From the NCBI GenBank assembly GCA_947630765.1, contig CANRIX010000004.1:15929-79928 (forward strand): a DNA stretch of 64,000 bases. The letters are read 5' to 3'. This document shows, piece by piece, positions 8,208 to 56,275 of the stretch. The notes under the pieces were generated by a model. It made no database searches. It was not told where the DNA came from and was given only the letters and a program-made list of their open reading frames with translations. The DNA comes from an uncultured Clostridia bacterium. Its GTDB lineage: Bacteria; Bacillota; Clostridia; Oscillospirales; CAG-382. Each line of letters begins with the position of its first letter. Positions within the stretch are counted from its first letter, which is position 1. A program made the position numbers and the translations under genes.

Positions 8208-8455
8208 TTTTCGGGGGGCAAACGCAATCGCGGCGACTCCGCTACGCGTCGCCTTGCTCTGCTTTTTCTCATTCAAAGCGGCAATCCGCTTTGAATAGAA
8301 AGTCCCCCCTTTCATCGAAACCCGGCTCGGCTTGCGCCACTTCTGACGCCGCCATCGCCGGTTTTCTCTTAAGGTTGCCCCTATGCTCCAAACACAATTG
8401 TGTTTGGAGCCAGCGGCGCATGTCCGCCTACGGGGCGATTTTTTATTTTATTTTT
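8208..8455 (+). repeat. Dispersed structured element, copy A (carries two extra inserted hairpins)
   Basis: Shares GGGGCAAACGCAATCGCGGCGACT, CTCGGCTTGCGCCA..CTGACGCCGCC.TCGCCG.TTTTCTCTTAAGGT and CATGTCCGCCTACGGG with the copy at 14180. Confidence 0.9.
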
Positions 8456-8592
8456 GTTTATTTTGAGGCTTTTCACGTTTTGCGGAAAAAAATCTCGCGA
8501 AACGTGCGCTTGACAGGCGGACTTCCGTCTGGTATCCTATAGACGTGCACAGGAAACGGGGCCCCTGCAAAACAAGAAAAGGAGAACACCGT

Positions 8593-9759
8593 ATGAAACT
8601 GAAAATCGGAGAGAATATTCGTCGCTGTCGCCGGGACGCGGATCTGACGCAACAGCAGTTTGCCGAGCAGATGGGCGTGACTTACCAGTCGGTCAGCCGC
8701 TGGGAAAACGGCGAAACCTACCCGGATACCGAACTTTTGCCCGCCATCGCGGACTATTTCCACATTTCCGTCGATCGGTTGATGGGCGTGCCGGACGCCG
8801 AAAAGGAAAAGCAGGCGCACGAAGCGTTCGACGCCCTGCGCCGTGCGTGTATGCGGCAAGAGATCGACACGGACGAAGTCGTGTCGATCCTGCGGGAGAT
8901 TCGGCGAAACTATCTGGAGACCCCGGAGGCGTGGCGTATCTGGCTCGGAAACGACCGCTGTTTCCGTATGCCGGAGGTCCTGCCGGAGGTGCGGCTGACG
9001 GCGGAAGCGTACCTCGCCCTGCACCCGATGGACGAGGGGACCCTGCAAACGATGGCGTGGGTCGAGGACGAGGAACATCTGGAGGCGTTTCTGCACAAGC
9101 ATAGCACCGGGTACGACACGTCCTATCGCGCATTGCTCTTTATGCGGTATTGGCGGCGGGAAAACGAGGAAAAACTGGAGCCGGAACGGAAATATCGGTT
9201 TGCCCAAACGATGGATTGGCTGTTCGATACGCGTACCCTTTACGGAATTCGTGCGTCGCGGGAGGTTGAGGACGCCGCGACGCGGTTTCAAAGCGAACTG
9301 CTTGATTCTATACGCGAGAACAGGAAGGACGACGAGCCGGATATTTGGGTGGAAATACGACTGGATTTGGCGATTCGCCGCGCGTCGATCGCGGCGCGAA
9401 GCGGGGACGTGAAAGGTGCGCTTTGCGAATTGGAATTTGTCGCGTCGCTGTTGGAAACGACAATGCGTATCCGCGAACCGCAATCCCTCGGTACGTCCTG
9501 CCGTTGGCTGGACGGAATGGTGTGGACCGCGGAGGAATACTGGAACAGCCCTTCCAATAACCCGGACCAACCGATTGAACGTGCAATTTATCTTTACACC
9601 GAACTGCTCGGCGTAACGACCTGCTATATGATTTATCCGAGCCTGTATTACGACCGCATTGCGAACCTGAACGGGAAGGAATGCCTGCAGGACCACCCGG
9701 AATACCAAGCGGTCCTTTCCCGCGTCGAGGCGCTTATACAGCGCAAACCGAAGGCGTGA
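8593..9759 (+). CDS. XRE-family HTH transcriptional regulator with large helical C-terminal domain
   Basis: KIGENIRR..LTQQQFAEQMGVTYQSVSRWENG; AAGGAG RBS; TTGACA-17-TATCCT at 8510-8538. Confidence 0.85.
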   Translation: MKLKIGENIRRCRRDADLTQQQFAEQMGVTYQSVSRWENGETYPDTELLPAIADYFHISVDRLMGVPDAEKEKQAHEAFDALRRACMRQEIDTDEVVSILREIRRNYLETPEAWRIWLGNDRCFRMPEVLPEVRLTAEAYLALHPMDEGTLQTMAWVEDEEHLEAFLHKHSTGYDTSYRALLFMRYWRRENEEKLEPERKYRFAQTMDWLFDTRTLYGIRASREVEDAATRFQSELLDSIRENRKDDEPDIWVEIRLDLAIRRASIAARSGDVKGALCELEFVASLLETTMRIREPQSLGTSCRWLDGMVWTAEEYWNSPSNNPDQPIERAIYLYTELLGVTTCYMIYPSLYYDRIANLNGKECLQDHPEYQAVLSRVEALIQRKPKA

Positions 9760-9780
9760 CGAGAACTTTGCAAAAAGCAT

Positions 9781-9925
9781 AAAAAAATCGCGGCAAGCCA
9801 CGAGGGCTTGCCAGAATACAGGGACCCCGCAAAGTCGTAAGACTTTGTGGGGAAAAGGAGCGGCAGCCCGAAAGGCGGACGCCGTGATTTGTGAAAAAAA
9901 TCGCGGCAAGCCACGAGAGCTTGCC
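9781..9925. repeat. 32-bp direct repeat (duplicated tRNA terminator hairpin) flanking an 81-bp hairpin cassette
   Basis: AAAAAAATCGCGGCAAGCCACGAG(G/A)GCTTGCC at 9781-9812 and 9894-9925. Confidence 0.85.
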
Positions 9926-9932
9926 GCGACGT

Positions 9933-10008
9933 TGGAGCGGATTACGGGGGTCGAACCCGCTACCTCAACCTTGGCAAGGTTGCGCTCTACCAAATGAGCT
10001 AAATCCGC
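9933..10008 (-). tRNA. tRNA-Gly(GCC)
   Basis: Reverse complement GCGGATTTAGCTCA...CTTGCCAAGG...GGTTCGA...CCGCTCCA, 76 nt with CCA. Confidence 0.97.
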
Positions 10009-10016
10009 AAAAGAAG

Positions 10017-10093
10017 TGGCGACTCGAAGGGGACTCGAACCCCTGACCTCCGCCGTGACAGGGCGGCGTTCTAACCAACTGAACTACCGAGCC
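10017..10093 (-). tRNA. tRNA-Asp(GTC)
   Basis: Reverse complement GGCTCGGTAGTTCAG...CCTGTCACGG...GGTTCGAGTC...CGCCA. Confidence 0.97.
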
Positions 10094-10289
10094 AAATCGA
10101 ACGTCCCGAACCGAAGAACGCGGGTGTTTCCCGCCGCCTTCCGTTCCGGCGACAAGGAGAGTATACCATAAATCGCTCCCGTTGTCAAGCCCTTTCGCGG
10201 CGTTTTTTCGCGCAGACGGAAAATTTTTTCGTCTGCGCGTTTGCCGTCATAAAGCGGCGCAGCATCTTGCCGCACCTAATCCTAGCAAA

Positions 10290-10487
10290 AATACAATAAA
10301 ATAACGTTTCGGAGACGGACATGAGCCGGCTCCGAAACTCCTCAAGAGAAAACCGGCGAAGGCGGCGTCAGCATTGGCGCAAGCCGAGCCGGTTTTCGAC
10401 GAGGGGGGCCTTCGGGGGAGGGAACACGGAGCAAGGCGGAGCGCATGAAATGCGCGGAGTCGCCGCGATTGTGGTTCCCCCCCGAAA
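10290..10487 (-). repeat. Dispersed structured element, copy B
   Basis: Reverse-complement match to copies A/C; very similar to copy D. Confidence 0.9.
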
Positions 10488-10494
10488 TTATTCT

Positions 10495-11220
10495 CTACGC
10501 GTGTGACAGCACGTCCCGAAGCCGTTCAATGGTCTTTTTTTCCAACCGCGAGATGTAACTCTGCGAGATGCCGAGCAGATCGGCGACCTCCTTCTGGGTC
10601 TTTTCCTGTCCGCGGCTTTCCGGCGCGAAGCCGAACCGCAGTTCGATGATGCGCTTTTCCCGCTCGGACAGGCTGTCGATGGCGCGACGGATCATTCGCT
10701 TTTCCTCCCGCTCTTCGATGGCGCGACCCACGTCGTCCCCTTCCGACCCCAGCAGGTCGCTCAACAGCAGCTCGTTGCCGTCGTAGTCCACGTTGAGCGG
10801 CTCGTCGAGCGAAAGTTCCGAGCGCACGCCCGCGTTCTTGCGCAGGTGCATGAGGATCTCGTTTTCGATACAGCGGGACGCGTAGGTCGCCAGCTTGATC
10901 TGCTTATCCGGGCGGAACGTGTTGACCGCTTTCATCAATCCGATCGTGCCGATGGAGATCAGGTCCTCGATCCCCACGGCGGAGCTTTCAAATTTCTTCG
11001 CGATGTAAACGACCAACCGCAGGTTCCGCTCGACGAGCGTGTTGCGGACGGTCGGGTCCGTGTCCAGCCTTTCCAGCAGTGCCGCTTCCTCCTCGCGGGA
11101 GAGGGGCGGGGGGAGCGTCTGCGGCCCGTTGATATAGTAGATCTCCCCCGACCGCAGCAGCCGCACCAGCCACCTCCGCAGGGCGCTGCCCGTCCGTTTG
11201 CGCTTCTTTCCGATCGTCAT
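10495..11220 (-). CDS. sigE: Sporulation sigma factor SigE (pro-sigma E)
   Basis: [49 protein letters not shown]; lies downstream of spoIIGA. Confidence 0.93.
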
Positions 11221-11251
11221 TCTCCGTCAATCCTTTCGTTTTTTGTTTTTT

Positions 11252-12061
11252 TCAAAGCAGGGCGCCCGGCAAAAGCCCGTCGCAGCCTGCAAAATCCGTG
11301 TTGTCGGTGTCGATACCGATGACCGCGTCCACGCGCCGGTGCTTCTCAAACGGCGGGCAGAGCGTGATGCTGTCCGGGATGAACCCGTAAAGCAGACCCA
11401 AACCTGTCTGCGTCCGAATCGGGATGGCGCGAAGCGGGACCGGGCTGCTCTCCAGATCCGGCTTGTCAAGCGGGGACGGCAGGACCGACGCGGACAGAAT
11501 GACGACCGGCAGAGCGGAAAACGGCTCCGTGACGAGGTTTCCGCTGTCCACGAGCACGTCCGCTTTCACGCACGTCCCGCCGAAGGTGACTTCGATTTTC
11601 ATATTCCTTGCGTAAACCTTCCTTCTGCAATACAGCCCGTAAAGGATCAACGCCCCGCCGAACGCCAGCGCCAGCGCCAGAATGCCGAGTGCGCTCGCCC
11701 TCCACTGACCTATGTAATACGCCGCCGTGATCCCGCCGCCCATCGCGGCTTCCGTCAGCACGAATACGAACACCGTTTTCGCGAACCGTTTCCAGGTCGT
11801 CCCCTTCGCCGGGAATGCGACCGCACACATCCCGACGGCCGCCGCCAGATGCGCCGGAAGCTGCACCCACAGCGGGAACTGCATCAGCCGCACCGCCAGA
11901 AGCGCGTACACCGCGCCGCACAGCGCCCCGAGCACGACCCGCCAGCCGACGAACCGCCGCATCGCCACCTTCGCGCAGACGACGAGGCAAAGAAAATCCA
12001 ACGCGAAGTTCAGAAACGCCAGTACGTCCGCATATACTACAACGACCTCCTGCCCCGCCAC
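11252..12061 (-). CDS. spoIIGA: Sigma-E processing aspartic peptidase
   Basis: VYADVLAFLNFALDF, 5 TM helices, catalytic DSGN. Confidence 0.9.
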   Translation of the reverse strand: MAGQEVVVVYADVLAFLNFALDFLCLVVCAKVAMRRFVGWRVVLGALCGAVYALLAVRLMQFPLWVQLPAHLAAAVGMCAVAFPAKGTTWKRFAKTVFVFVLTEAAMGGGITAAYYIGQWRASALGILALALAFGGALILYGLYCRRKVYARNMKIEVTFGGTCVKADVLVDSGNLVTEPFSALPVVILSASVLPSPLDKPDLESSPVPLRAIPIRTQTGLGLLYGFIPDSITLCPPFEKHRRVDAVIGIDTDNTDFAGCDGLLPGALL

Positions 12062-12217
12062 GGTCCGACCCCCTGCCTGTCATGCTTGTTTTCCCGTCTG
12101 TTCCTATTGTAAGGACAAACGGGTGAAAAATATGTCGCTTCCGGGAAAGAATTTACAAGAATTTTTCCGCCCGTTCACCCGCTTTGCCGGGAATCCCGTT
12201 TAGGAAGGAATTTTGCG

Positions 12218-12427
12218 ATGAAGAAGCCGCTTTTTTGCTTGCGCACCGGTCGACGCCGGTTCTGCCTGCTCCTTGCCCTGCTTTTGCTCGCCGTCTGCTT
12301 CGCCGGGGTCGTCCGCCGCCCGGTCGACCGTTCCGACGACGCGCCGGTTTTTGCCGACGGCGTGTCCGTCCCGTCCGCCGTCCCGCAAAGCCTGTACGGT
12401 CTGCTCGGGCAGGCGCTCGACGCGTGA
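12218..12427 (+). CDS. Small single-TM hypothetical protein
   Basis: AGGAAGGA RBS; TGATG coupling to the next gene. Confidence 0.6.
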   Translation: MKKPLFCLRTGRRRFCLLLALLLLAVCFAGVVRRPVDRSDDAPVFADGVSVPSAVPQSLYGLLGQALDA

Positions 12428-13032
12428 TGTACGCCGTGTTTCCGCGTTTGCGATTGCGGGTCAACCTGTTCGCCCTGCCCGCGTTCGCTTTGCTGTTCCT
12501 GCTCGAAGGGGTGGTGCCGGCGTCGCTGCTTTTGCTCGCGTCGCTGCTGCACGAATGCGGGCACCTCGCCGCCCTGCGCATCTTTCATGTTCCGCTGCGA
12601 CGCGTCGACGTCGAGCCGCTCGGCGCGAACCTCGTCTATGACGACGCGCTCTGTCCATTGCGAGCGTCCGCGTGGATCGCCTTTTCCGGCGCGTTCGCCA
12701 ATCTGTTGGCGATCCTGCTCTGCCTGCCGTTCCTTTGGTTCGCCCCGCAAAACCTCCCGCTCGCCTTCTTCGCCCTCGCCAACGCGTTCCTCGCTTTTCT
12801 CAACCTTCTCCCGTGGTCCTGTTTGGACGGCGGGCGGCTCCTGTTCGACCTGCTGCTGCTCCGCACGCCGCCCGACCGTGCGCCGGACGTCGAACGCGCC
12901 TGCCGCACCGTTTCCCGCGTCAGCGCGTTTTTGCTGTTCGCCGTCCTGCTGTACCTGTCCGTCCTGTCCGCGTTCCCGCTGTGGGCGCTGCTGCTGTCCG
13001 CGCTCTTGCTCGGGCAGGTCGGACGCGGATAA
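12427..13032 (+). CDS. M50 site-2 peptidase, SpoIVFB-like
   Basis: HECGH and NLLPWSCLDGG motifs, multi-TM. Confidence 0.85.
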   Translation: MYAVFPRLRLRVNLFALPAFALLFLLEGVVPASLLLLASLLHECGHLAALRIFHVPLRRVDVEPLGANLVYDDALCPLRASAWIAFSGAFANLLAILLCLPFLWFAPQNLPLAFFALANAFLAFLNLLPWSCLDGGRLLFDLLLLRTPPDRAPDVERACRTVSRVSAFLLFAVLLYLSVLSAFPLWALLLSALLLGQVGRG

Positions 13033-13082
13033 AAAAGTTCCGGCGGACAGCTCCGCCGGAACAAATGACTTGTTTTGCACGC

Positions 13083-14012
<930 letters not shown>

Positions 14013-14076
14013 GGTTACAGCCTTCTTTCTCGAAATTGCAGGTATGACAAAACCTATATGTTTACTGTGTATTGGA

Positions 14077-14105
14077 GTATAGCACATCAAACTGCGTTTG
14101 TCAAG
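14077..14105 (-). promoter_or_regulatory. Sigma-A promoter of cysK
   Basis: Reverse complement TTGACA-17-TATACT with extended TG. Confidence 0.75.
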
Positions 14106-14137
14106 GGGAAAAAGCAAATTTTTCAAAAAAATCCGGC

Positions 14138-14166
14138 TTGACAAACCGGGAAAGATGCGCTATACT
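14138..14166 (+). promoter_or_regulatory. Near-consensus sigma-A promoter pointing into repeat copy C, with no downstream ORF
   Basis: TTGACA (14138-43), 17 bp, TATACT (14161-66). Confidence 0.75.
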
Positions 14167-14179
14167 GGGTCGAAAAATG

Positions 14180-14378
14180 TTTTGGGGCAAACGCAATCGC
14201 GGCGACTTCGCACACTTCGTGCGCTCCGCCTTGCTCTGCCTTTTCCCCCCAATACCCCCCTTTGATCGAAAAACGACTCGGCTTGCGCCAATGCTGACGC
14301 CGCCTTCGCCGTTTTTCTCTTAAGGTGTCCCCTCCGGCGGCTCATGTCCGCCTACGGGACGATAATTTTATTGTATTT
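14180..14378 (+). repeat. Dispersed structured element, copy C (candidate stand-alone ncRNA)
   Basis: Block-wise match to copies A, B, D, E; directly downstream of a promoter. Confidence 0.9.
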
Positions 14379-14437
14379 CCGTTTCGTTGTTTTTTCGGCA
14401 GATTGTGCGGGACGGTTCCGTCCCGCATTTCGGACGC

Positions 14438-15112
14438 CTATTCGGTCTTCTGCTCCTCGATCTCCAGCAAAAAGCGGTACAGCGGTTCGACCAGACGGAA
14501 GTCCCGCTCCAAGGTTTCCGCGAAATCCGCCGCGAACAGCGTTTCAAACTCCCGCGACGAGCACCCGAACGTCCATTCCTTTCGATTCAGCCAGCCCTTG
14601 TATGGCTCCGGCTGGTCCGGGAAATGGTCCCGCTTGGGAAGCGACCCCTGCGGGGCAAAGACCGTCTGCTTCTCCAGCGTCCGGCGGAGCTTTTCAAACT
14701 TTGGCGAGCGGACAAGCACCTTCTCGCGTGCGACGCGAAGCGCCTCCGGCGACATTTCGTAGTATCCGCAGCCGTACCCGAATTCCAGCGGGGACAGATA
14801 GAAATAGAACTCCGGGTAGAGCGGGAAGAAGCGCTTATCCCGCTTGCAGGAGATCCACATTTCGCTTCGATAGAGCGCACCGCTCCGCGAGAAGCGCAGG
14901 TCGCGGTAGATGCGCGAGATGGTGCGGTCCACCTTCGGCGCACAGACGATCAGCGGATCCACCGACTGCAGGAACGGCGTGAGCGCTTCGACCAGCTCCG
15001 CGAGCGGGGCAAGCACGTGGGTCTGATACGATTCCCTGTGTTCGCGGAACCATTCCCGGCTGTTCTGCTGGTAGTTTTCGTCCAGAAAATCCAGCGTTTC
15101 CTGCGTAAACAT
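14438..15112 (-). CDS. DUF2461 family protein
   Basis: NSREWFREHRESY and RIYRDLRFS motifs. Confidence 0.85.
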   Translation of the reverse strand: MFTQETLDFLDENYQQNSREWFREHRESYQTHVLAPLAELVEALTPFLQSVDPLIVCAPKVDRTISRIYRDLRFSRSGALYRSEMWISCKRDKRFFPLYPEFYFYLSPLEFGYGCGYYEMSPEALRVAREKVLVRSPKFEKLRRTLEKQTVFAPQGSLPKRDHFPDQPEPYKGWLNRKEWTFGCSSREFETLFAADFAETLERDFRLVEPLYRFLLEIEEQKTE

Positions 15113-15159
15113 CCCGTTTGCGCCCCCTTTTCATCAATGAACGTCCGAAAGGAACTCCC

Positions 15160-16302
15160 ATGAACGCCCTTCTTGCCTTCGTCAAACGCGAGCCGGTGCT
15201 GCTGGCCGCCGCGCTTGCCGCCGTCGTCAGTTGTTTCTTCGTCCCGCCGGACGCCGCCTACCTCGGCTACCTCGATTTCCGCACGCTCGCCCTGCTGTAC
15301 GCCCTGATGACCGTCGTCGCAGGGCTCCGCAAGGCGGGGGTGTTCTCGTCGCTCGCGCGGGCGTTGCTCCGACGGGCAAAGACCGTGCGCTCGGTCGGTG
15401 CGCTCCTGGTCGGGCTTTGCTTTTTCTGCTCCCTCTGCATCACGAACGACGTCGCGCTGCTGACGTTCGTGCCGTTCGCGGTCGAGGTCCTGCGGCACGC
15501 CGGCGGACCGAAAACCGTGACGCTTCGCGTCGTCCTGCTCCAGACCGTCGCCGCCAACCTCGGCAGTATGCTCACGCCGGTCGGCAACCCCCAGAACCTC
15601 CACCTGTATTCCTTCTACCAGTACAGCCTGCCGGGTTTCCTGCGGACGGTGCTCCCGGTCTGGCTGCTTTCGCTCGCCTTGCTTTCCGTCTGCTGCCTAT
15701 TTCTGCCGCGTGCGGCGGTCGGGGACGGCGGGGAAGCGCCGGACGGGGAAGGGGTGCGGACCTCGGCGGTCTGGGTATACGGTCTGCTGTTCGTCGTCTG
15801 CCTTGCGACGGTGCTGCGGGTGCTGCCGTGGACGGTCATGCTGGCCGTCCTGTTCGCCGTGCTGCTGGGATTCGACCGCAGGACCCTGCTCGACGCGGAC
15901 TTCTTCCTGCTGCTGACCTTCTGCGCCTTCTTCGTCTTTGCCGGCAATCTCGCCCGCATCCCCGCGGTCGACGGGCTGCTGCAAACCCTGCTCGCCGGGC
16001 GGACCTACCTGACCGCCGTGCTGGCGAGCCAAGTCATCAGCAACGTCCCGGCGGCGATCCTGCTCTCCGGCTTCACGACCGACGCGAACGGTCTGCTGCT
16101 CGGCGTGAACGTCGGCGGGCTCGGTACGCCGATCGCGAGTCTCGCGAGTCTGATCGGCTTTAAGCTCTATTCCGCGTCGGAAAACGCCCGCAAGGGGCGC
16201 TTCCTGCTGGAATTTCTGGCGCTCAACCTGCTGCTGCTCGGACTGCTTTCGGCGTTTGTCCTGCTCTTTCCTATTCCCGGTGGGCTTTCTTCCACGCCTT
16301 GA
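15160..16302 (+). CDS. SLC13/ArsB-NhaD (citrate transporter-like) permease
   Basis: ITNDVALLTFVP, AANLGSMLTPVGNPQNL, SQVISNVPAA. Confidence 0.88.
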   Translation: MNALLAFVKREPVLLAAALAAVVSCFFVPPDAAYLGYLDFRTLALLYALMTVVAGLRKAGVFSSLARALLRRAKTVRSVGALLVGLCFFCSLCITNDVALLTFVPFAVEVLRHAGGPKTVTLRVVLLQTVAANLGSMLTPVGNPQNLHLYSFYQYSLPGFLRTVLPVWLLSLALLSVCCLFLPRAAVGDGGEAPDGEGVRTSAVWVYGLLFVVCLATVLRVLPWTVMLAVLFAVLLGFDRRTLLDADFFLLLTFCAFFVFAGNLARIPAVDGLLQTLLAGRTYLTAVLASQVISNVPAAILLSGFTTDANGLLLGVNVGGLGTPIASLASLIGFKLYSASENARKGRFLLEFLALNLLLLGLLSAFVLLFPIPGGLSSTP

Positions 16303-17590: not shown

Positions 17591-17611
17591 TTCGTGCTCC
17601 TTTCCGTGTCT

Positions 17612-21630: not shown

Positions 21631-21717
21631 GCGGGTGTGGCGGAATTGGCAGACGCGCTAGATTCAGGTTCTAGTGGGGGCGACTTCGTGAAGGTTCAAG
21701 TCCTTTCACCCGCACCA
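21631..21717 (+). tRNA. tRNA-Leu(CAG)
   Basis: GCGGGTGTGGCGGAATTGGCAGACGC...TTCAGGT...long variable arm...GGTTCAAGTCC...CGCACCA. Confidence 0.97.
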
Positions 21718-21718
21718 T

Positions 21719-43802: not shown

Positions 43803-43823
43803 TTGATTGGAACAGGAGTTTTT

Positions 43824-47065: not shown

Positions 47066-47130
47066 ACCTCATACCTTCCTTCAATAATTTACTTGGGGGA
47101 TATCTCAACCCGCGTATTTATTATATCGAA

Positions 47131-47174
47131 AGTATATCACCGACTTATCGCCAAGTTATTGCCGACTTGTAAAA
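47131..47174 (-). promoter_or_regulatory. Response-regulator-type 11-bp direct repeats + extended -10 (site 1)
   Basis: Reverse complement TTTTACAAGTC GGCAATAACTT GGCGATAAGTC GGTGA TATACT. Confidence 0.65.
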
Positions 47175-48538: not shown

Positions 48539-49191
48539 ATCTCAAACCGATATCCCGTTTTATACACCGTTTGGATTCGATCCGATATGCCCAATTTCTG
48601 GCGGATCCTTTGGATATGAACGTCAACGGTGCGGGAATCCCCTTCGTAGTCAAAGTCCCAAACAAGTTTCAACAGCTTCTCGCGGGAGAGCGCAAGGTTG
48701 CGATTGTTGATCAGCGCTTCGAGCAGATCGAATTCCTTTGGTTTCAATTCCACCTCAACGCCGGACTTGAATACCCTCCGATTGTCAAACTCGATTCGGA
48801 TATCATCAAACGCGAAGGTTTTTGCATCCGCTTTCGTCCTGCGAAGCACGGCTTTCACCCGCTCAACGAGTTCGAGAATATCAAACGGCTTGGTAATATA
48901 GTCGTCGGCGCCCAAACGAAGCCCTTTGATTTTGTCCTCTGAAGCGGATTTTGCCGTAACGAAAATGACCGGCGTGTCCTCGATGGATTCCATGATCTCA
49001 AAGCCGGAATACTTGGGCAGCATCACGTCCAGTATGATCAGATCATATTTCGACTTTAACGCCTCTTCAAGGCCGGTTTCGCCGTCAAATACTTGGTAAC
49101 AATCGTGTCCGACCAATTCAAGATTGAATTTTACAAGGTCGTTGATCGCTTTTTCGTCCTCGACGATCAGTATTTTTGCCACGTTTTTCAC
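48535..49191 (-). CDS. OmpR-family response regulator
   Basis: ILIVEDE, LDVMLP, GADDYITKPF, RTVDVHIQRIR. Confidence 0.96.
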   Translation of the reverse strand: MKNVAKILIVEDEKAINDLVKFNLELVGHDCYQVFDGETGLEEALKSKYDLIILDVMLPKYSGFEIMESIEDTPVIFVTAKSASEDKIKGLRLGADDYITKPFDILELVERVKAVLRRTKADAKTFAFDDIRIEFDNRRVFKSGVEVELKPKEFDLLEALINNRNLALSREKLLKLVWDFDYEGDSRTVDVHIQRIRQKLGISDRIQTVYKTGYRFEI

Positions 49192-49235
49192 CTCCGCGTT
49201 GCCGATTGAGGGTGTAATTTTTCTATTTTATGGAT

Positions 49236-49268
49236 AGTATAGCACGGACTTGTTTCCAACTTGTTGCC
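49236..49268 (-). promoter_or_regulatory. Response-regulator-type 11-bp direct repeats + extended -10 (site 2, autoregulatory position)
   Basis: Reverse complement GGCAACAAGTT GGAAACAAGTC CGTGC TATACT. Confidence 0.7.
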
Positions 49269-49319
49269 GGAATAGCAAAAATCCCACACTTTTTTCTGTG
49301 CGGGATTTTTGTCAACGAT

Positions 49320-49835
49320 TTACTTGGGGGCAAGGATGACATGATACCAATCGTCGTTGATCTTTTTAACCCGGATCTCTTCTTGTTCATCCGGCGAGTT
49401 TAGCCATGTCGGCTTCTCATTCGGCGAATAAACAAGTGCGTATCTGGCATTTTCTATATGGAACGAAACCCTATTTCCTTGTATTTGGATAATATACAAG
49501 CCGGAGTCTTTATCCGGAAAACCGTGATCACAGATAGCTTCAAGCGAAGAGCTCACATTGTCAGGAATATCCACATACGCATTCGCGTCGGGGTCGTATA
49601 ATGTCTGACCGTCCGTGTCGGTACGGGAAACAAAAAACCATTTTCCGCCTTCGGACGCAAAATTTTTTTCGACATATTCTCTGACAACACAAAAGTCAGA
49701 TTCGAAAGTTTCAAAATCCGCATTGAATTTCCACGTCTCGACATAGCTAAAATACAGCCACGAAAAAATTTGTAATGCGATGAAAAGAAGAATGAAAGAT
49801 AATACAAATAGGATTGTTGCAGTTCCCTTTTTCAT
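49320..49835 (-). CDS. Hypothetical membrane-anchored protein
   Basis: N-terminal TM; coupled to the upstream gene. Confidence 0.7.
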   Translation of the reverse strand: MKKGTATILFVLSFILLFIALQIFSWLYFSYVETWKFNADFETFESDFCVVREYVEKNFASEGGKWFFVSRTDTDGQTLYDPDANAYVDIPDNVSSSLEAICDHGFPDKDSGLYIIQIQGNRVSFHIENARYALVYSPNEKPTWLNSPDEQEEIRVKKINDDWYHVILAPK

Positions 49836-50320
49836 CCTTGCGCACTATCCTCTCGGCTTGTTTTCGTTATCTTAGAAAGCAATCTGTAGGAAATGCTCTG
49901 CCCGTTTTTTCTTGAGAAGGATAGGGACATGACAAGTCCGAACACAAACAGACCTACGAGAAACAGCCAACCCATGCCACCGTCATCGCCTAAGTCATTG
50001 TTAACCATGCGGAATGCAGATCTGAGACCATCGGAGCGTTTCATTTGATTAAAAATCATTCCAACGTACAGGAAAAGCGGAATTTCAGCGGCGGCAATGG
50101 GGTCCACATACCACCGAAACAAGCTAAACCGCATAAGGACAGCGACAAGCACGGGCGTCATAACGAAAAGCACGCCATACGTCACCGCTATCACGGCGCC
50201 AAGGTTATCGGCTTCCCCTGTCAAATCCAGTATCAAAGATGCCGCATAGAAGAATGCCATATAAACAACTATGGTCAGTATGTAATATAGAAAGTGAAAA
50301 ATGACGTGCTTCTTTTTCAT
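49832..50320 (-). CDS. Hypothetical 4-TM membrane protein
   Basis: Hydrophobic ORF with GGAAAGG RBS. Confidence 0.75.
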   Translation of the reverse strand: MKKKHVIFHFLYYILTIVVYMAFFYAASLILDLTGEADNLGAVIAVTYGVLFVMTPVLVAVLMRFSLFRWYVDPIAAAEIPLFLYVGMIFNQMKRSDGLRSAFRMVNNDLGDDGGMGWLFLVGLFVFGLVMSLSFSRKNGQSISYRLLSKITKTSREDSAQG

Positions 50321-50405
50321 GGAATTGCACCTTTCCTATCAATCATTTTCTCATAAATTGCTCGTTTCCTCAATGGACTGACATATTCTTCATCCTTCGT
50401 GCACG

Positions 50406-50438
50406 ATTGTATCACGCATTTGTTGCCAACTTGTATCC
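50406..50438 (-). promoter_or_regulatory. Response-regulator-type 11-bp direct repeats + extended -10 (site 3)
   Basis: Reverse complement GGATACAAGTT GGCAACAAATG CGTGA TACAAT. Confidence 0.7.
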
Positions 50439-50526
50439 GTGCATACGCAATTTTTGAAATTTTCGGCAGAAAAAACTATTTTTTTTCGAAGGAAGCTACG
50501 GACCGAAATTTTTTTGCGATTTCCCC

Positions 50527-50555
50527 TTGACAAATACCCCATGGGGGTATATAAT
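50527..50555 (+). promoter_or_regulatory. Sigma-A promoter with a CsoR operator in the spacer
   Basis: TTGACA-17-TATAAT enclosing ATACCCCATGGGGGTAT (C/G-tract palindrome typical of CsoR). Confidence 0.88.
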
Positions 50556-50597
50556 GTGCTTGTGAAACGGGAATTTTACAGGGAAAGGGTGGTCAAA

Positions 50598-50909
50598 ATG
50601 GAAAGCAAGACCCCTTGCGAATGCTGCGGCGGGAAGAAAACCGAACGGAGCGAAGCTGAACGCAAAAAACTTATGAACCGCCTCAACCGCATCGAAGGGC
50701 AGGTCCGCGGGATCTGCGGCATGGTTGAACGGGACGCGTACTGTGCGGATATCCTCACGCAATGTGCCGCCGTCAGCGCTGCGCTCAGCGCGTTCAACCG
50801 CGAACTGATCGCGAACCACCTGCGCCACTGCGTTGCGCGGGACCTGCGGGCGGGGAAGGACGAGGTCATCGACGAGCTGGTCGATACGCTGCAAAAGCTG
50901 ATGAAATAA
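50598..50909 (+). CDS. csoR: Copper-sensing repressor CsoR
   Basis: RLNRIEGQVRGI..M...YCADILTQ...HLRHCV. Confidence 0.92.
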   Translation: MESKTPCECCGGKKTERSEAERKKLMNRLNRIEGQVRGICGMVERDAYCADILTQCAAVSAALSAFNRELIANHLRHCVARDLRAGKDEVIDELVDTLQKLMK

Positions 50910-50953
50910 TCCTGCATCCTGCATACAATAATATGTTAGAAAGGGTGAGATAA

Positions 50954-53479
50954 ATGGAGCAATACACCGTAACGGGTATGAGCTGTGCGGCGTGCAGTGC
51001 GCGTGTGGAAAAGGCGGTCCGCGCCGTGCCGGGGGTGAAAAGCTGTGCGGTCAGCCTGCTCACCAATTCGATGGGCGTGGAGGGAAGCGCGTCCCCGCAG
51101 GCGGTCATCGAGGCGGTGCGGAACGCCGGCTACGGCGCGTCCCTCAAGCGGCAGGGCGAACGGCAGGCGGCGAGCGCGCCGGAGGATGCGCTGCGCGACA
51201 CGGAATCCCCGAAGCTGCGTCGCAGATTTCTCGTATCGCTCTTTTTCCTCGCGATCCTGCTGTACGGTTCGATGGGGAATATGCTGTGGGATTGGCCGCT
51301 TCCGCCGTTTTTCGAGGGCAATCACGTCGCGATGGGGCTCGCGCAGCTTCTGCTGACCGTCATCATCATGGAGATCAACCGCAATTTCTTCATCAGCGGG
51401 ACAAAGAGCCTGCTCCACCGTGCGCCGAACATGGACGCACTCGTATCGCTCGGTGCGGCCGCCGCGTTCGGCTACAGCACGTTTTCGCTGTTCGTCATGA
51501 CCGGCGCACAGGCGCGTGGGGACATGGAAACCGTCATGGCGTGCATGGACGGCTTCTATTTCGAGTCCGCCGCCATGATTTTGACGCTCATTACGCTCGG
51601 GAAATGGCTGGAGGCGCGAAGCAAGGGCAAGACCACCGACGCGCTCAAGGGACTTATGAAGCTCGCGCCAAAGACCGCCGTTCTTTTGCGGGACGGCGAA
51701 GAGATCACAGTCCCCGTCGAGCAGGTGCGGAAGGGCGATCGGTTCGTCGTCCGTCCGGGGGAGCAGATCCCGGTCGACGGCGTGGTGACGGAAGGCGGGA
51801 GCGCGGTCAACGAATCCTCCCTGACCGGGGAGAGCATCCCGGTCGATAAAGCGCCGGGGGACGCGGTGTTCGCCGGGACCCTCAACCAGTCCGGCGTGCT
51901 GCGGTGCGAAGCGACCCGTGTCGGCGAGGATACGACGCTTTCGCAGATCATTCGCATGGTCGGCGACGCGGCGGCGACCAAAGCGCCGATCGCAAAGCTC
52001 GCCGACAAGGTGTCCGGGGTGTTCGTCCCGTCGGTCATCGGCGTGGCGTTGGTGACGTTCGCCGTGTGGCTGTTGGTCGGGCGGACGGTCGGGTTCGCGC
52101 TGGCGCGCGGTATCTCGGTGCTGGTCATCAGTTGTCCGTGCGCGTTGGGGCTTGCGACGCCGGTCGCGATCATGGTCGGGAGCGGCGTCGGCGCGAAGAA
52201 CGGCGTGCTGTTCAAGACGGCGGCGTCGCTCGAGGAGACCGGGCGTGCGGAAACCGTCGTGCTGGATAAGACCGGCACGATCACGAAGGGCGAACCGCGC
52301 GTGACCGACGTCCTGCCCGCGCCGAGCGTCACGCGGACGGAGCTGCTCTCCCTCGCCTGCACGCTCGAACGGAACAGCGAACACCCGCTCGCGAAGGCGA
52401 TCCTGCACTTCGCCGGGGAGGACGGCGTGACCGTCGGGGACTGCACCGACTTCCGTGCGCTGCCGGGCAACGGGCTGACCGCCGTCGAGAACGGGGAAAC
52501 GCTCTGCGGCGGGAACTACGCGATGATGCGGGAGCGGGTGAACGTCCCGGACGACCTGCGACGCGCCGCTGAAGCGTTTGCGCAGGACGGAAAGACGCCG
52601 CTGTACTTCGCGCGTGGGGAGGCGCTTGCCGGGGTCGTCGCGGTTTCGGACGTGCTCAAGGAGGAAAGCCCGCAGGCCATTCGGGAACTGCACGGCATGG
52701 GGTTGCGGGTCGTGATGCTGACCGGCGACAACGAGCGCACCGCGAAAGCGATTGGTGCGCAGGCGGGCGTCGACGAGGTGGTCGCCGGGGTTCTGCCGGA
52801 CGGGAAGGCGGCGGTCGTGCGGAAGCTGAAGGCGCAGGGCAAGGTCGTGATGGTCGGCGACGGCATCAACGACGCGCCGGCGCTGACCGAGGCGGACATC
52901 GGCGCCGCCATCGGCGCGGGGACCGACGTCGCCATCGACGCGGCGGACGTGGTGCTGATGAAGAGCCGGCTGACGGACGTGCCGGCGGCGATCCGGCTGG
53001 GTCGTGCGACGCTGCGGAATATCCGCGAAAACCTGTTCTGGGCGTTCTTGTACAACGTCATCGGCATTCCGCTCGCGGCGGGGGTGTTCATCGCCCCGTT
53101 CGGCTGGCAGCTCAATCCGATGTACGGTGCGGCGGCGATGAGCCTTTCAAGCTTCTGTGTCGTGACGAACGCCCTGCGGCTGAACCTGCTTCGTATGTAC
53201 GACGCGAAACACGACAGAAAACGGAAACAAAGACCGAAACGGATACAGATACAAAAGGAGGAAAAACTGGTGGAGAAAACTCTGCAAATTGAAGGCATGA
53301 TGTGCGGACACTGCGAAGCGCGTGTCAAGAAGGCGCTCGAAGCGCTCGACGGCGTAACGCTCGCGACGGTCAGCCATCTTGACGGGACGGCGGTCGTGAC
53401 GCTTTCGCACGACGTGCCCGACGACGACCTGAAACGGGCGGTCGAGGCGCAGGACTACAAAGTCACCGCCGTGCGGTAA
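50954..53479 (+). CDS. copA: Copper-translocating P1B-type ATPase with N- and C-terminal HMA domains
   Basis: GMSCAAC, TGES, CPC, DKTGT, SEHP, GDGINDAP, YN, C-terminal GMMCGHC. Confidence 0.95.
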   Translation: MEQYTVTGMSCAACSARVEKAVRAVPGVKSCAVSLLTNSMGVEGSASPQAVIEAVRNAGYGASLKRQGERQAASAPEDALRDTESPKLRRRFLVSLFFLAILLYGSMGNMLWDWPLPPFFEGNHVAMGLAQLLLTVIIMEINRNFFISGTKSLLHRAPNMDALVSLGAAAAFGYSTFSLFVMTGAQARGDMETVMACMDGFYFESAAMILTLITLGKWLEARSKGKTTDALKGLMKLAPKTAVLLRDGEEITVPVEQVRKGDRFVVRPGEQIPVDGVVTEGGSAVNESSLTGESIPVDKAPGDAVFAGTLNQSGVLRCEATRVGEDTTLSQIIRMVGDAAATKAPIAKLADKVSGVFVPSVIGVALVTFAVWLLVGRTVGFALARGISVLVISCPCALGLATPVAIMVGSGVGAKNGVLFKTAASLEETGRAETVVLDKTGTITKGEPRVTDVLPAPSVTRTELLSLACTLERNSEHPLAKAILHFAGEDGVTVGDCTDFRALPGNGLTAVENGETLCGGNYAMMRERVNVPDDLRRAAEAFAQDGKTPLYFARGEALAGVVAVSDVLKEESPQAIRELHGMGLRVVMLTGDNERTAKAIGAQAGVDEVVAGVLPDGKAAVVRKLKAQGKVVMVGDGINDAPALTEADIGAAIGAGTDVAIDAADVVLMKSRLTDVPAAIRLGRATLRNIRENLFWAFLYNVIGIPLAAGVFIAPFGWQLNPMYGAAAMSLSSFCVVTNALRLNLLRMYDAKHDRKRKQRPKRIQIQKEEKLVEKTLQIEGMMCGHCEARVKKALEALDGVTLATVSHLDGTAVVTLSHDVPDDDLKRAVEAQDYKVTAVR

Positions 53480-53638
53480 AAAAGGGACGGGGCGCCGGAG
53501 CGAAAACGCTTCGGTCCGCCCCGAACCCTTCGCGATTCGGACGACTTAACGAGGTTGGTAAGATTCGTATCGTTTTGCGTGCTGTTTTTTGCAAGCGGGT
53601 CGTGGTATTCTATAAGCACAAAGCGCAGGAGGTCATTC

Positions 53639-54046
53639 ATGAATATCGGAAGAACGATTAAGGAGTTACGGCAGAAACGGGGACTCACACAGGAGGAATT
53701 CTCGGAAGCGCTACGGGTATCCGTCCAAACCGTTTCCCGCTGGGAAAACGGCGTGAACGCCCCAGACCTGTCCATGCTTCCGCAGCTCGCCCTCTATTTC
53801 GGAGTGACCGCAGACTATTTACTGGGCTTGGAAAGGAATGATACCATGGCAAAACTGCTGAAAACCACCGAAGTCTTTGAATTGGCGTCCAAACAGGAGG
53901 CCGAGGAAATGGTCCTGAAATTCAAGGGGGAAAAATTCCCTGTGTTGAAGGACTACAGGATTACTTCCCACGGGGATACGGTGATTCTTGAGGTCGTCAA
54001 GGAATTCAACAGCGAATTGGACCGTATGCGGTTTGAAGGGCCGTGA
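53639..54046 (+). CDS. XRE-family HTH protein with small C-terminal domain
   Basis: LTQEEFSEALRVSVQTVSRWENG; AGGAGG RBS. Confidence 0.85.
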   Translation: MNIGRTIKELRQKRGLTQEEFSEALRVSVQTVSRWENGVNAPDLSMLPQLALYFGVTADYLLGLERNDTMAKLLKTTEVFELASKQEAEEMVLKFKGEKFPVLKDYRITSHGDTVILEVVKEFNSELDRMRFEGP

Positions 54047-54242
54047 CCGACGGCGGACACGATTGAACCGCCGTGCAAAGAAAACGCTCTGTGCGATGGG
54101 AAATTCGCCGGAGCGTTTTCCGTTGGATATAAATATTTTACAAATGCGCAAAAATTCATTCACGAATTCGACATAAGACTTCAGTATAATTGCAGAATAC
54201 CCGATGCATGGTGATTTGAATCCCCTCGAAAGGCAGGAACCT

Positions 54243-55526
54243 ATGAATAATCCATATAGCGACTACATATCAAACATGGAATTTTCATCCAATGTCAAGG
54301 ATACCGTGAAAGTTTATGACGCAAACATTTATGCCACGCAAATGGAAGAGGATCTCTCTGCTTTGGAATATATCTTATGCAATATATACAGCGGAAAAGA
54401 TTTTTTGAAAAAAAGAGGCATTGATATTTCTGGCAGACTGAATGATTTAAGATCAAAAATCATTCGTGTGGACCGTATGAACAAGGTTGAATTTTTTGAA
54501 GTATTGTGTGCGGCACTTCGTGAAATTGAGGATAATCACCTTGTTTTTACGCTTCCGTACTTTGAAAAAACGCATCGGTTCTGCATACATCATACAGTTT
54601 ATTTTGCCGATTTTGTATTGCAAAAAAGGGAAGATGAATACATTGTATCTGCGTCCGATGATCCGTCAATAAAGTGCAGAGATATTATTACAGCCGAGGA
54701 AGCCCATCTGTATCCAACCGCGGACGGTCAACTGCTATACGGTGTTTTCAGTAAACAGCGTATACAAACGGTCGCATGTGTCTGCAATGGCAGAGAAGTC
54801 AGGATAAATGTTTCCCCTGTTCCTACCAAAAAATCAGATGCAAAGATCTGGTCGTATGAGAAATATCAGAATATTGATCTTGTAACGATCCATCGATTTG
54901 CCGCATTCAATGAAGCGGAAAAGCAGGATATGAACGAGTTGCTCTCATTGGGAAGCAAACTCAAGAAATCAAAGCAGATCATTATTGATTTGCGTGGTAA
55001 TTACGGCGGAGATTCGGAATATGTACGGCAATTCGTTGAAAATCTTAACGGTCGTGCGGTTTTCAATTTGGGATACGCAAAACTGAATACGCAAGGCAGC
55101 AGACTGGCGGAAATCAGTCTTTATACGCCGAATTTGCACGACTATGAGAAAACGAAAAAGGAGATTTTAGCGGATCCTGCTGCTCAATGGCAATGTACCG
55201 CTGAACAACCCATTTATGCAGGACAATATCAAAATGACCTTCTTTTATTGACCGACAGGGAAACCGCTTCTTCCGCGGAAATTATGGTAAAGTGTGTAAA
55301 AGATAACATTCCGCAATGCGTTGTGATCGGTGAGAATACGAGCGGAACATTGAGCACCGGGGATATTCGGTATTTTTACTTGCCGAATTCGCTTATTTTT
55401 CTAAACATTCCCACAGCGATATTTGCCGGCGTCTTTGAGGAAGGAACCGGCTTCCTTCCTGATTTTTGGAGTAAAGACGCTATGCAATGCGCCATAAACG
55501 TATGCTTGACAAAGAATTTGAATTGA
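54243..55526 (+). CDS. S41 family peptidase
   Basis: IIDLRGNYGG, TASSAE, IGENTSG, GFLPD; AT-rich. Confidence 0.85.
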   Translation: MNNPYSDYISNMEFSSNVKDTVKVYDANIYATQMEEDLSALEYILCNIYSGKDFLKKRGIDISGRLNDLRSKIIRVDRMNKVEFFEVLCAALREIEDNHLVFTLPYFEKTHRFCIHHTVYFADFVLQKREDEYIVSASDDPSIKCRDIITAEEAHLYPTADGQLLYGVFSKQRIQTVACVCNGREVRINVSPVPTKKSDAKIWSYEKYQNIDLVTIHRFAAFNEAEKQDMNELLSLGSKLKKSKQIIIDLRGNYGGDSEYVRQFVENLNGRAVFNLGYAKLNTQGSRLAEISLYTPNLHDYEKTKKEILADPAAQWQCTAEQPIYAGQYQNDLLLLTDRETASSAEIMVKCVKDNIPQCVVIGENTSGTLSTGDIRYFYLPNSLIFLNIPTAIFAGVFEEGTGFLPDFWSKDAMQCAINVCLTKNLN

Positions 55527-55656
55527 AAATTCTGCGTTTTGCGATTGCTTCCTGTGGAGGAGGTATTTATGGATTTATCTATCAGAAAACTTCATGTTTA
55601 CACAACAAAACCCCCGGAACGGCAGTCAAGACCACCGATTTATCGGTGGTCCTGAC

Positions 55657-55848
55657 TAAAATCTCGTTTCGGAGACGGACATGCGCCGGCTCCGAAACAC
55701 ATCCAGAGAAAACCGGCGAAGGTGGCGTCAGCATTGGCGCAAGCCGAGCCATTTTTCGATGAAAGGGGAGTATTCGGGGGGAAAACACGGAACAAGGCGG
55801 AGCGCACGAAGTGTGCGGAGTCGCCGCGATCGTGTTTGCCCCCCGAAA
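55657..55848 (-). repeat. Dispersed structured element, copy D
   Basis: Very similar to copy B over ~180 bp. Confidence 0.9.
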
Positions 55849-55854
55849 GATGTT

Positions 55855-55992
55855 TTAATTCCCCCCCGGCCCGTCGCGGCGCGGGCGGTCGTCCGGGACT
55901 TCCAGCTTGCCCTTGATCTTGCTCGGGTCGGTGCGCGGTTTTTTGGGTTTCGGCTCCGCGTTTTCGGCGGTGCGCTTTTTGGGTTCCTGCAT
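55855..55992 (-). CDS. 45-aa small basic hydrophilic protein
   Basis: AAGGAGGG RBS; MQEPKK...EVPDDRPRRDGPGGN; sigF-like promoter upstream. Confidence 0.7.
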   Translation of the reverse strand: MQEPKKRTAENAEPKPKKPRTDPSKIKGKLEVPDDRPRRDGPGGN

Positions 55993-56015
55993 GGCGTATT
56001 CCCTCCTTTTGCGGG

Positions 56016-56045
56016 TAGTTTTCCCGATTTCGCGGGAACGCATAC
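56016..56045 (-). promoter_or_regulatory. Putative sigma-F (forespore) promoter
   Basis: Reverse complement GTATG-15-GGGAAAACTA vs consensus GYATA-15-GGnnAnAnTw. Confidence 0.6.
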
Positions 56046-56047
56046 CC

Positions 56048-56084
56048 CAAAAATTGAGAACCCACGGTCCCGTGGGTTCTCAAT
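56048..56084 (-). terminator. Intrinsic terminator of the rubrerythrin transcript (beyond repeat copy E)
   Basis: Perfect 14-bp stem ATTGAGAACCCACG/CGTGGGTTCTCAAT followed by Ts on the - strand. Confidence 0.7.
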
Positions 56085-56273
56085 ACAATCAAAATATCGT
56101 CCCGTAGGCGGGCGTGTACCGCCGGAGGGACACAATAAGAGAAAACCGGCGATGGCGGCGTCAGAATTGGCGCAAGCCAAGCCGGTTTTCGACGAAGGGG
56201 GAGTATTTGAGGGGGGAACGCAGAGCGAGACAGTTCGTAGAACTGTCGACGCGATTGTGGTCCCGCCTCAAAA
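56082..56273 (-). repeat. Dispersed structured element, copy E
   Basis: Same blocks as A-D with compensatory stem changes. Confidence 0.88.
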
Positions 56274-56275
56274 AA

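Follow-up and report, generated by a model that had tools for sequence, protein, structure and literature searches.

The REP/BIME sequences of Enterobacteria and Pseudomonas are single imperfect palindromes of about 35 nucleotides (nt), often found as inverted pairs and tied to a Y1 (RAYT) gene. Other short repeats include Correia/NEMIS of Neisseria, ERIC/IRU, RUP and BOX of pneumococcus, and Bcr1 of Bacillus cereus; true miniature inverted-repeat transposable elements (MITEs) carry terminal inverted repeats (TIRs) and a target duplication, and some structured MITEs also carry promoter or terminator activity. Integron attC sites form contiguous cassette arrays beside an integron integrase, and single-strand origins and G4-type priming signals occur once per replicon. 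Here, we analyzed a repeat present in five copies (A to E) in a 64-kb stretch of the genome of an uncultured Clostridia bacterium (64,000 nt of contig CANRIX010000004.1, assembly GCA_947630765.1; hereafter, the window), and compared it with these systems. As judged against Rfam and the literature, the five copies are members of an apparently undescribed superfamily of short repeats that occur in gut Clostridia and are non-autonomous. From its sequence features, the family would work most like REP/BIME and structured MITEs, yet it fails the defining tests of each; in its missing inverted ends and duplications, it resembles elements derived from IS200/IS605.

A strand-specific fold in large and small units

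The initial annotation had placed five copies of a non-coding element with three paired domains in the window, and all five were confirmed at those places, with refined limits. R1, a covariance model of the enlarged form of the repeat trained on 24 copies from the source genome (G000; 2.11 Mb in 39 contigs, 97% complete, with the window on its contig C4), matched only these five copies within the 64 kb. From 5′ to 3′, the unit consists of an A/T-rich motif (ATACAATAAAAT), a first hairpin (P1) with the loop ACATGYG, a second domain (P2), an A-rich linker, a third domain (P3), and the end GAGAGCG-NNA-GCGA. Copy B (10285-10488, + strand) serves as the reference copy. Its 5′ motif, AATACAATAAAAT (10290-10302, +), contains a −10-like TACAAT; its P1 (10306-10338, +) pairs GTTTCGGAGACGG with CCGGCTCCGAAAC around the loop ACATGAG; its P2 (10346-10399, +) is a GAAAACCGGC/GCCGGTTTTC stem enclosing GGC-G-GCGTCAG..TGGCGC-AA-GCC; and its enlarged P3 (10411-10487, +) holds a hairpin of variable sequence inside an outer stem TTCGGGGG.../...CCCCCCGAA. 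P2 is the most sequence-conserved part of the repeat and carries an invariant U.G pair, while P3 carries an invariant G.U pair. The arms quoted in the annotation hold in all three domains, namely, GTCCC/GGGAC versus GTTTC/GAAAC in hairpin 1, the GAAAACCGGC/GCCGGTTTTC stem around GGC..GCC in domain 2, and TTCGGGG/CCCCGAA versus TTTGAGG/CCTCAAA in domain 3. Alignments inspected by eye showed no conserved open reading frame (ORF) in the repeat.

The other window copies vary around this plan. Copy A (8208-8455, −) has a degenerate 5′ motif and is longer than the others because a 24-nt hairpin, CTCCAAACACAATTGTGTTTGGAG (~8380-8410), is inserted in the 3′ half of its hairpin 1. By eye, this insert is present in 16 of the 65 full-length G000 copies, copy A included, and has covarying variants (e.g., CTCCGAACAC..GTGTTCGGAG); it is a second repeat nested in the hairpin, or else the mark of a subfamily that propagates. 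Copy C spans 14177-14381 (−) and copy E 56078-56274 (+), while copy D (55648-55849, +) was correctly described as shortened at one end, its 5′ motif being truncated to GGTCCTGACTAAAAT.

The annotation had also supposed that the element is abundant genome-wide, which was borne out by 74 R1 matches in G000 (E ≤ 1e-3). A search by blastn and two nhmmer rounds gave 82 matches, 65 of them full length, and the copies are scattered over 27 of the 39 contigs beside unrelated genes. At least 46 R1 matches were found in the sister species G001, whose sequences flanking the copies are ~92% identical to those of G000. Two G000 mini copies consist of both ends only. Furthermore, a subfamily of at least eight G000 copies (C6:13049, C5:81618, C5:28323, C14:10416, C26:22499, C19:20729, C6:51256, and C28:1540) has a different 5′ leader, CCTTCCCCGCACAAAATGACG in place of ATACAATAAAAT, together with a hairpin 1 formed by GTCAAATCTGCGG/CCGCAGATTTGAC and a further 60-100 nt in common upstream (GCCGTTTTCTGATGCGCACCC...).

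The enlarged form, 200-250 nt long, is abundant only in G000 and G001 according to R1. A smaller unit of 130-185 nt opens with (T)ATACAATAAAA, followed by a spacer of 3-7 nt. Its P1 has 13 bp and a loop ACATGYG closed by GG/CC, and is followed by ACCUWWGR; its P2 has a 7-8-bp closing stem around an inner hairpin that varies, and contains ..GGCGCGAGCGMACG in its 3′ half. The linker between P2 and P3 reads ACAAAAAC, P3 has 11 bp (C-NNNN-GAAAAY / RTTTTC-NNNN-G), and the 3′ end, GAGAGCG-NNA-GCGAY, forms a 2-bp mini hairpin. R2, a covariance model of this small form trained on 28 units of 130-185 nt, aligns to the window copies with E values of 3e-8 to 5e-3, so that the G000 form corresponds to a unit with enlarged P2 and P3. 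The G000 family thus appears to be a lineage-specific enlarged form of the 130-185-nt unit.

R2 matches occur in 50 of the 61 genomes of the genus, with a maximum of at least 44 per genome (the figures for the genus are lower bounds per genome), in 9 of 121 genomes sampled from the order, and, at E ≤ 1e-5, in 7 of 150 sampled from the class, G000 being included in both of the latter counts. Of the 11 genomes of the genus with no match, four have a completeness of 97% or more. A wide scan for the exact 5′ motif plus the hairpin-1 loop, with one genome per species, found 95 stretches. Of the 80 that were listed, 79 are metagenome-assembled genomes (MAGs) labelled Oscillospiraceae, Eubacteriales, Clostridia, Ruminococcus, or Lachnospiraceae, with titles that name rabbit, ruminant, and human gut. 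Units are frequently arranged head to tail (...GCGAY, then directly TATACAAT...), and modules of P3 plus GAGAGCG are also found standalone. At locus L091 (4501-5019, −), and likewise at L118, three tandem units follow one another with a period of 183 nt, and each of the tandem units includes a separate copy of the final ~27 nt of the neighbor gene. Related MAG loci also commonly hold another short hairpin repeat, GGGGTCCCCGAAAAT-loop-ATTTTTGGGG, either beside units or within P1/P2 (L069, L100, L101, L104, L106, L124, L130, L134, L142, and others).

Paired changes among the window copies had suggested that structure is selected more than sequence, and strong covariation in larger alignments bore this out. 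In an alignment of 28 small units (A7), 96.8% of the cells are paired and both sides changed in 25 of 38 pairs, a result reached by 0 of 500 shuffles; partners shifted by 1-3 columns, used as a control, pair in 27-47% of the cells. In 24 G000 copies (A3), 95.4% of the cells are paired and both sides changed in 20 of 52 pairs (0/500 shuffles). The corresponding values for 99 distinct sequences (A8), a model-fitted alignment and hence biased toward the modelled structure, are 96.5% and 37 of 38 pairs (0/500 shuffles). Among individual helices, 8 of the 13 P1 pairs are altered on both sides across the 24 G000 copies, and 7 of the 8 pairs of the P2 closing stem covary in the 28 small units. Folding z-scores of 12 copies range from −3.9 to −9.6. 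Averaged over 12 sequences per form, the z-score is −6.9 (enlarged) or −4.7 (small). A mutual-information scan of the 99 sequences gave no pseudoknot or tertiary covariation outside the helices, its sole signal being a UA/AU swap of adjacent bases in the P1-P2 linker. These results demonstrate that the fold of the repeat is under selection.

The distribution of wobble pairs further distinguishes the two strands. On the strand on which copies B, D, and E are read (the B/D/E strand), 62 G000 copies hold 218 G.U against 73 A.C pairs, and two G.U pairs are near-invariant, being present in 60 and 59 of the 62 copies. The same bias is found in P1 of the small units (11 G.U versus 0 A.C) and over the 99 sequences (103 versus 14), where it amounts to 39 versus 3 in P1, 44 versus 6 in P2, and 20 versus 4 in P3. 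Moreover, in the main G000 subfamily, hairpin 1 has an internal loop that presents G.A, U.G, and A.G on the B/D/E strand and would present pyrimidine mismatches on the other. Folding energy is lower for the B/D/E strand in 61 of 62 G000 copies (−104.0 versus −90.4 kcal/mol); the small units show the same difference in 24 of 35 cases. The B/D/E strand is thus the folding strand.

Position at gene ends and turnover between sister species

Neighbor orientation in G000 was taken from crude ORF calls, which gave a neighbor for 64 copies. In 49 of these, the 3′ neighbor is convergent and the folded strand is antisense to the neighbor gene, with a stop codon no more than 13 nt from the repeat in 34 of the 49. 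A convergent 3′ neighbor was likewise observed for 56 of 71 copies of other MAGs. For 35 small units with exact ends, considering convergent ORFs of at least 60 codons, the stop codon lies −1 to +2 nt from GCGAY in 11 cases; 12 other nearby stops are 7-59 nt off, often separated from the unit by another hairpin module. Orientation in G000 showed no bias relative to GC skew (33 same versus 35 opposite), the skew itself being weak in this genome (gene agreement of 535 versus 313). The orientation of the repeat follows the adjacent gene and not GC skew. Judging from the flanks, several MAGs carry units at the same gene ends, one of which encodes a C-terminus that looks RNase Y-like. Contact with the stop codon may reflect targeting, and may equally reflect a deletion bias that trims non-functional DNA in compact genomes.

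Four of the window copies (A, B, D, and E) are separated from a convergent stop codon by 1-6 nt. The 3′ end of copy A is ~5 nt past the TAG stop of a + strand ORF (7366-8202), that of copy B ~6 nt from the stop of a convergent ORF (10495-11220, −), that of copy D 5 nt from the stop of a 62-aa − strand ORF (55855-56043), and that of copy E 1-2 nt from the stop of a − strand ORF (56276-56827). Copy C points in the same direction as both of its − strand neighbor genes, is one of the 15 of 64 non-convergent G000 copies, and has a terminator-like hairpin 3′ of it on its own strand (14149-14133). Two tRNA genes plus their promoter-like site lie on the 5′ side of copy B.

Several other features adjoin these copies. 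The window holds three tRNA genes, a pair at 9936-10093 (−) and a single one at 21631-21714 (+), and the promoter-like site of the pair, TTGACA-17-TATACT, is at 10188-10160, just left of copy B. A near-consensus promoter-like sequence (TTGACA-17-TATACT, 11/12; 14138-14166, +) directly adjoins copy C at its 3′ end and is oriented into the reverse strand of the copy. Since no + strand gene precedes the next convergent gene, this site would yield only reverse-strand RNA of copy C, ending at the reverse of its hairpin 1; the sequence is retained in G001 despite the near-complete loss of copy C there. Directly 5′ of copies D and E are GC-rich hairpins (55620-55647, GACCACCGATTTATCGGTGGTC, and 56050-56077, GAGAACCCACGGTCCCGTGGGTTCTC), which would be extra terminator-like hairpins after the repeat on the gene-sense strand.

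We compared filled and empty sites between G000 and G001 and found that copy presence differs, with both gains and losses. Copy A is absent from G001, where a 38-nt A-run/hairpin/T-run, terminator-like by look, stands in its place; copy C is cut down to ~15 nt of its 3′ part; and copy B lacks its first ~60 nt (motif and hairpin 1) or has other sequence there. In the other direction, 6 of the 25 G001 copies examined have no counterpart at the matching site of G000. The difference at L050 is clean and unit sized, has the alignment-defined ends as its limits, sits at a stop codon, and leaves at most a 3-nt ambiguity as a flanking duplication; it is the sole clean insertion among the polymorphic sites. 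At L051 and L060, a remnant or look-alike of the 3′ end remains at the G000 site, and at three G001-only sites, G000 has a different sequence, which in two of them is a plain terminator hairpin. At 12 sites filled in both species, the copies are 80% alike (59-94%) versus 92% for their flanks, with 33 double changes that preserve pairing. Because same-site copies diverge more than their flanks, they seem to have been replaced by other family members, or the site to have been used repeatedly, rather than to have diverged slowly in place. Copies are therefore gained, lost, internally deleted, tandemly duplicated, and replaced between the sister species.

These observations bear on whether the repeat might be a purely cis-acting gene-end element of the REP/BIME kind, that is, a gene-sense 3′ untranslated region that contains one or two intrinsic terminators, stabilizes or ends the upstream mRNA, and yields no separate RNA, a reading we consider unlikely. 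Convergent neighbors in 49/64 and 56/71 copies and a stop codon within 3 nt in 11/35 small units would suit it, as would the empty alleles, which carry an ordinary terminator hairpin at the matching place. On the gene-sense strand, a U-rich run comes directly after P1 and, in the small form, after P3 as well; it is what the A-runs before P1 and P3 on the folded strand become on that strand. Conservation within the 5′ motif is highest in the AAAAT adjoining P1, which is retained in distant orders, and at copies A and C, reversed P1 together with its T-run has a terminator-like score. However, a gene-sense element would leave unexplained that the wobbles fall on the other strand in all helices (39/3 in P1, 44/6 in P2, and 20/4 in P3), that the gene-sense strand of the enlarged form folds 13.6 kcal/mol worse on average, that P2, with 7/8 closing pairs covarying, has no role in termination, and that 15/64 copies have the opposite orientation.

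Several small units are also bordered by imperfect flank repeats of 25-45 nt, or arrayed as unit plus flank, which we read as tandem duplications. The same repeats are relevant to a highly improbable alternative, in which the unit is a scaffold-plus-guide RNA (omega RNA-like or cis-antisense) that acquires a private tail by read-through into the 3′ end of its neighbor. The folded strand indeed points into the last codons of the neighbor across a gap of 0-3 nt and carries no terminator of its own, arrays repeat the unit together with its flank, the same gene ends are filled in several MAGs, and copies at a given site are replaced by other subfamily members. Yet no RNA-guided nuclease was found by a search that covered TnpB in G000 (IscB and Cas were not searched for), no omega-RNA family of Rfam was matched, and tandem duplication explains the flank repeats equally well.

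Comparison with described element types

The proposal of an undescribed family withstood comparison with Rfam, where no family was found at gathering thresholds and none was credible at E ≤ 10. At gathering thresholds, Rfam 15 recognized only the three tRNAs in the whole window; at E ≤ 10, copy B gave two chance-level matches (15.3 and 13.2 bits, for cut-offs of 40 and 70) and the small unit gave none. A description of the repeat was not found in full-text literature, a comparison that excludes the 3161 candidate RNAs tabulated in PMC8040213, which possibly include the motif. As annotated, the repeat has neither TIRs nor target duplications, and no transposase stands beside any copy. The first 25 nt and the reverse complement of the last 25 agree at 5.2/25 positions in 40 G000 copies and at 4.0/25 in 35 small units. 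Flanking direct repeats of at least 4 nt are present at 5 of 40 anchored G000 copies versus 6.6 in the control, and at 6 of 34 small units versus 5.5; those of at least 5 nt number 0 versus 1.9 in the 40 G000 copies. No fixed target motif is conserved at the unit ends, and the bases before ATACAAT vary. The neighbors of eight copies from three genomes of other orders, compared by eye over their first 50 residues, are mutually unrelated and point to no partner gene, and no transposase-like gene was recognized by eye near these copies.

Like REP/BIME, the repeat is multicopy, intergenic, hairpin forming, placed just past stop codons, and oriented by the upstream gene; it has no transposase within the unit and is predicted to share their capacity as terminator or mRNA stabilizer. 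It differs in its length of 130-250 nt, its three to four different hairpins, its conserved single-stranded linkers, and the absence of inverted doublets, none of which were seen in the G000 copy lists. Furthermore, Y1 genes do not track its copy number. The Y1 family (PF01797) is present in 21 of the 61 genomes of the genus and absent from copy-rich ones, namely, G043, G044 (27 matches, 97% complete), G013 (20, 96%), and G066 (25, 95%). A REP/REPIN-RAYT system was rejected on this ground and on the length and unlike hairpins of the unit. The sole Y1 gene of G000 is IS200-like, low in GC, and split at contig ends (C24:26-367 and C15:54753-54956), its two fragments overlapping in the peptide ..SSLMIFDR..; it is probably a recent arrival or an assembly-breaking repeat.

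With structured MITEs, the repeat shares the format of a 100-200-bp non-autonomous, RNA-folding repeat found at gene ends in tens to hundreds of copies. It differs in having no TIRs, no target duplication, and a strand-specific fold, and MITEs of the Correia, RUP, ERIC, and similar kinds were rejected on the first two counts. The likeness to IS200/IS605-derived elements and omega/reRNAs lies in the missing inverted ends and duplications, subterminal hairpins, one active strand, and a structured non-coding part of ~150-200 nt at the element end. However, G000 has no TnpB (0 matches to PF07282), Y1 is sporadic, no fixed 4-5-nt target was found, the bases before ATACAAT vary, and no IS605- or HEARO-type family of Rfam matches, so that an IS200/IS605-derived element or a TnpB omega RNA was rejected. 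An IS110/IS1111 bridge or seek RNA is ruled out by the 0 matches of G000 to the DEDD recombinase PF01548. Retroelement-borne RNA (retron, group II intron, or diversity-generating retroelement) was also set aside, since neither of the two RVT_1 genes of G000 lies beside a copy. These reverse transcriptases of 366 and 387 aa (C1:236334-239595, L161, and C2:51723-55385, L162) each have a small helical ORF beside them and lysin-like genes adjacent, and L162 has a lectin-like protein tail ending ..GGGWHRGTGAGVFAAGLNDARSNVSPGVGFRSAFYE nearby; beyond the RVT_1 match, their layout looks like that of diversity-generating retroelements in prophages.

Integron attC sites resemble the repeat in starting directly after a stop codon, in their fixed orientation, in conserving structure over sequence, and in folding as one strand, whereas the Clostridia units are scattered beside housekeeping genes on many contigs. 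Rolling-circle single-strand origins and G4-type priming signals are likewise orientation-dependent, multi-hairpin DNA of 150-250 nt, and the TAGCGA/AAGCGA-like motif in the small terminal hairpin may be reminiscent of the CS-6 motif; in contrast, no plasmid or phage record resembles the repeat. Among viral contigs, a single exact motif match was found, and it fails the covariance model.

The same comparisons weigh on the possibility that the repeat is a single-stranded-DNA (ssDNA) element with no RNA role, its hairpins being sites for an HUH-type or another trans-acting hairpin-binding enzyme. The lack of inverted ends and of target duplications, the folding of one strand into subterminal hairpins with a conserved loop and covarying stems, and the head-to-tail arrays would all be compatible with it, and G.T wobbles are tolerated in DNA hairpins, which also counts in its favor. 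We nevertheless judge it quite unlikely, given that Y1 is found in only 21/61 genomes and is missing from the copy-rich, near-complete G044, G013, and G066, that neither TnpB nor IS110 is present in G000, that no target motif is conserved at the ends, that orientation follows the adjacent gene and not GC skew (33 versus 35), and that phage and plasmid records hold nothing similar and the single viral-contig match fails the model.

Candidate roles of the two strands

We lean slightly toward a reading in which trans-helped or copy-choice spread is combined with an antisense RNA from the folded strand and terminators on the reverse strand. The repeat would spread as DNA, either aided by a trans-acting factor or through copy-choice or recombination events at terminators, and the spreading unit would often take the place of a resident terminator. 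The folded strand would be made as a 140-210-nt RNA antisense to the 3′ end of the neighbor, possibly started at the −10-like TACAAT, and on the opposite strand P1 (and P3 in the small form) plus its U-rich run would end the transcript of the neighbor. The repeat would then be a two-faced gene-end module, with a reverse strand that terminates and a forward strand that is made as RNA or recognized as ssDNA. The reverse strand probably ends the neighbor transcript, a prediction for which the U-rich runs after reversed P1 and P3, the conserved AAAAT, and the plain terminators of empty alleles also speak; this would explain both the orientation bias and the survival of insertions that displace a terminator. 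Selection of the P2 fold on the forward strand, where it has no terminator role, suggests that this strand matters as RNA or ssDNA; that it acts as RNA rather than ssDNA is conceivable, though somewhat doubtful.

The position of TACAAT, 6-9 nt before P1 on the folded strand, suggests that a transcript could begin at the foot of P1. The hexamer is retained in 34 of 62 aligned copies, its commonest variant being TATAAT (5 copies), and five ATACAATAAA sites lie outside repeats, some of them in promoter-like settings. The sole RNA library (X1) holds 8% of the sampled words, and since 133 of its 183 contigs are 90-95% alike, these derive from relatives. One X1 contig joins copy-A-like and copy-C-like sequence, indicating that family members are present in the library. 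Apart from the repeat, the depth of X1 contigs peaks at window positions 13248-13815 (401 and 159 versus no more than 55 elsewhere), which is probably a highly conserved and highly expressed gene of related organisms.

Several results weigh against the two-faced module. No conserved −35 was found, a promoter-like pair being present in 9 of 65 copies (6 with TACAAT), about as expected by chance, while good promoters of G000 read TTGACA-17-TATACT. The subfamily of at least eight copies with a different leader has no TACAAT, and in distant orders the A/T motif stands 1-3 nt before P1, too close for a start outside the hairpin. No hairpin-plus-U terminator is found on the folded strand itself, and the G.U bias of this strand means that the reverse-strand hairpins, where terminator activity is predicted, carry C.A mismatches. 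X1 contigs carry no strand information and may include DNA. Adjacency to stop codons could stem from deletion bias in small genomes, not targeting. The polymorphic sites are mostly replacements or deletion remnants with 15-25 nt of the 3′ end, and such untidy sites could be explained by recombination instead of transposition. Finally, no mobilizing enzyme was found among the TnpB, IS110, Y1, and RVT_1 families in G000 or by reading the neighbors by eye.

A bolder version, which we regard as very unlikely, makes the repeat a self-propagating, promoter-bearing gene for a scaffold RNA whose transcription extends into the final codons of the neighbor, so that each copy has a private antisense or guide tail. 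Such a small RNA (sRNA) gene would home to gene ends via an RNA-directed host factor or terminator-swapping copy-choice, with no transposase of its own, and, if real, would be a kind of bacterial mobile element without a described counterpart.

The repeat load of G000, about 74 × 210 nt, corresponds to roughly 0.7% of its DNA. If the two-faced module holds, one large uncultured genus of gut Clostridia would carry tens of copies per 1.2-2.4-Mb genome, with relatives scattered across the class, and fold, strand, and gene-end placement would all be selected, yet no RNA family or transposon type tested fits. With two covariance models and clear ends, the repeat offers a defined model for spread without TIRs, duplications, or a linked transposase. 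In practice, repeats of this kind cause breaks in MAG assemblies and lead terminator and sRNA predictions astray in these taxa. More broadly, the family raises the questions of whether the gene ends of compact genomes acquire their terminators from mobile modules, and whether antisense RNAs may in this way be seeded at many gene ends simultaneously.

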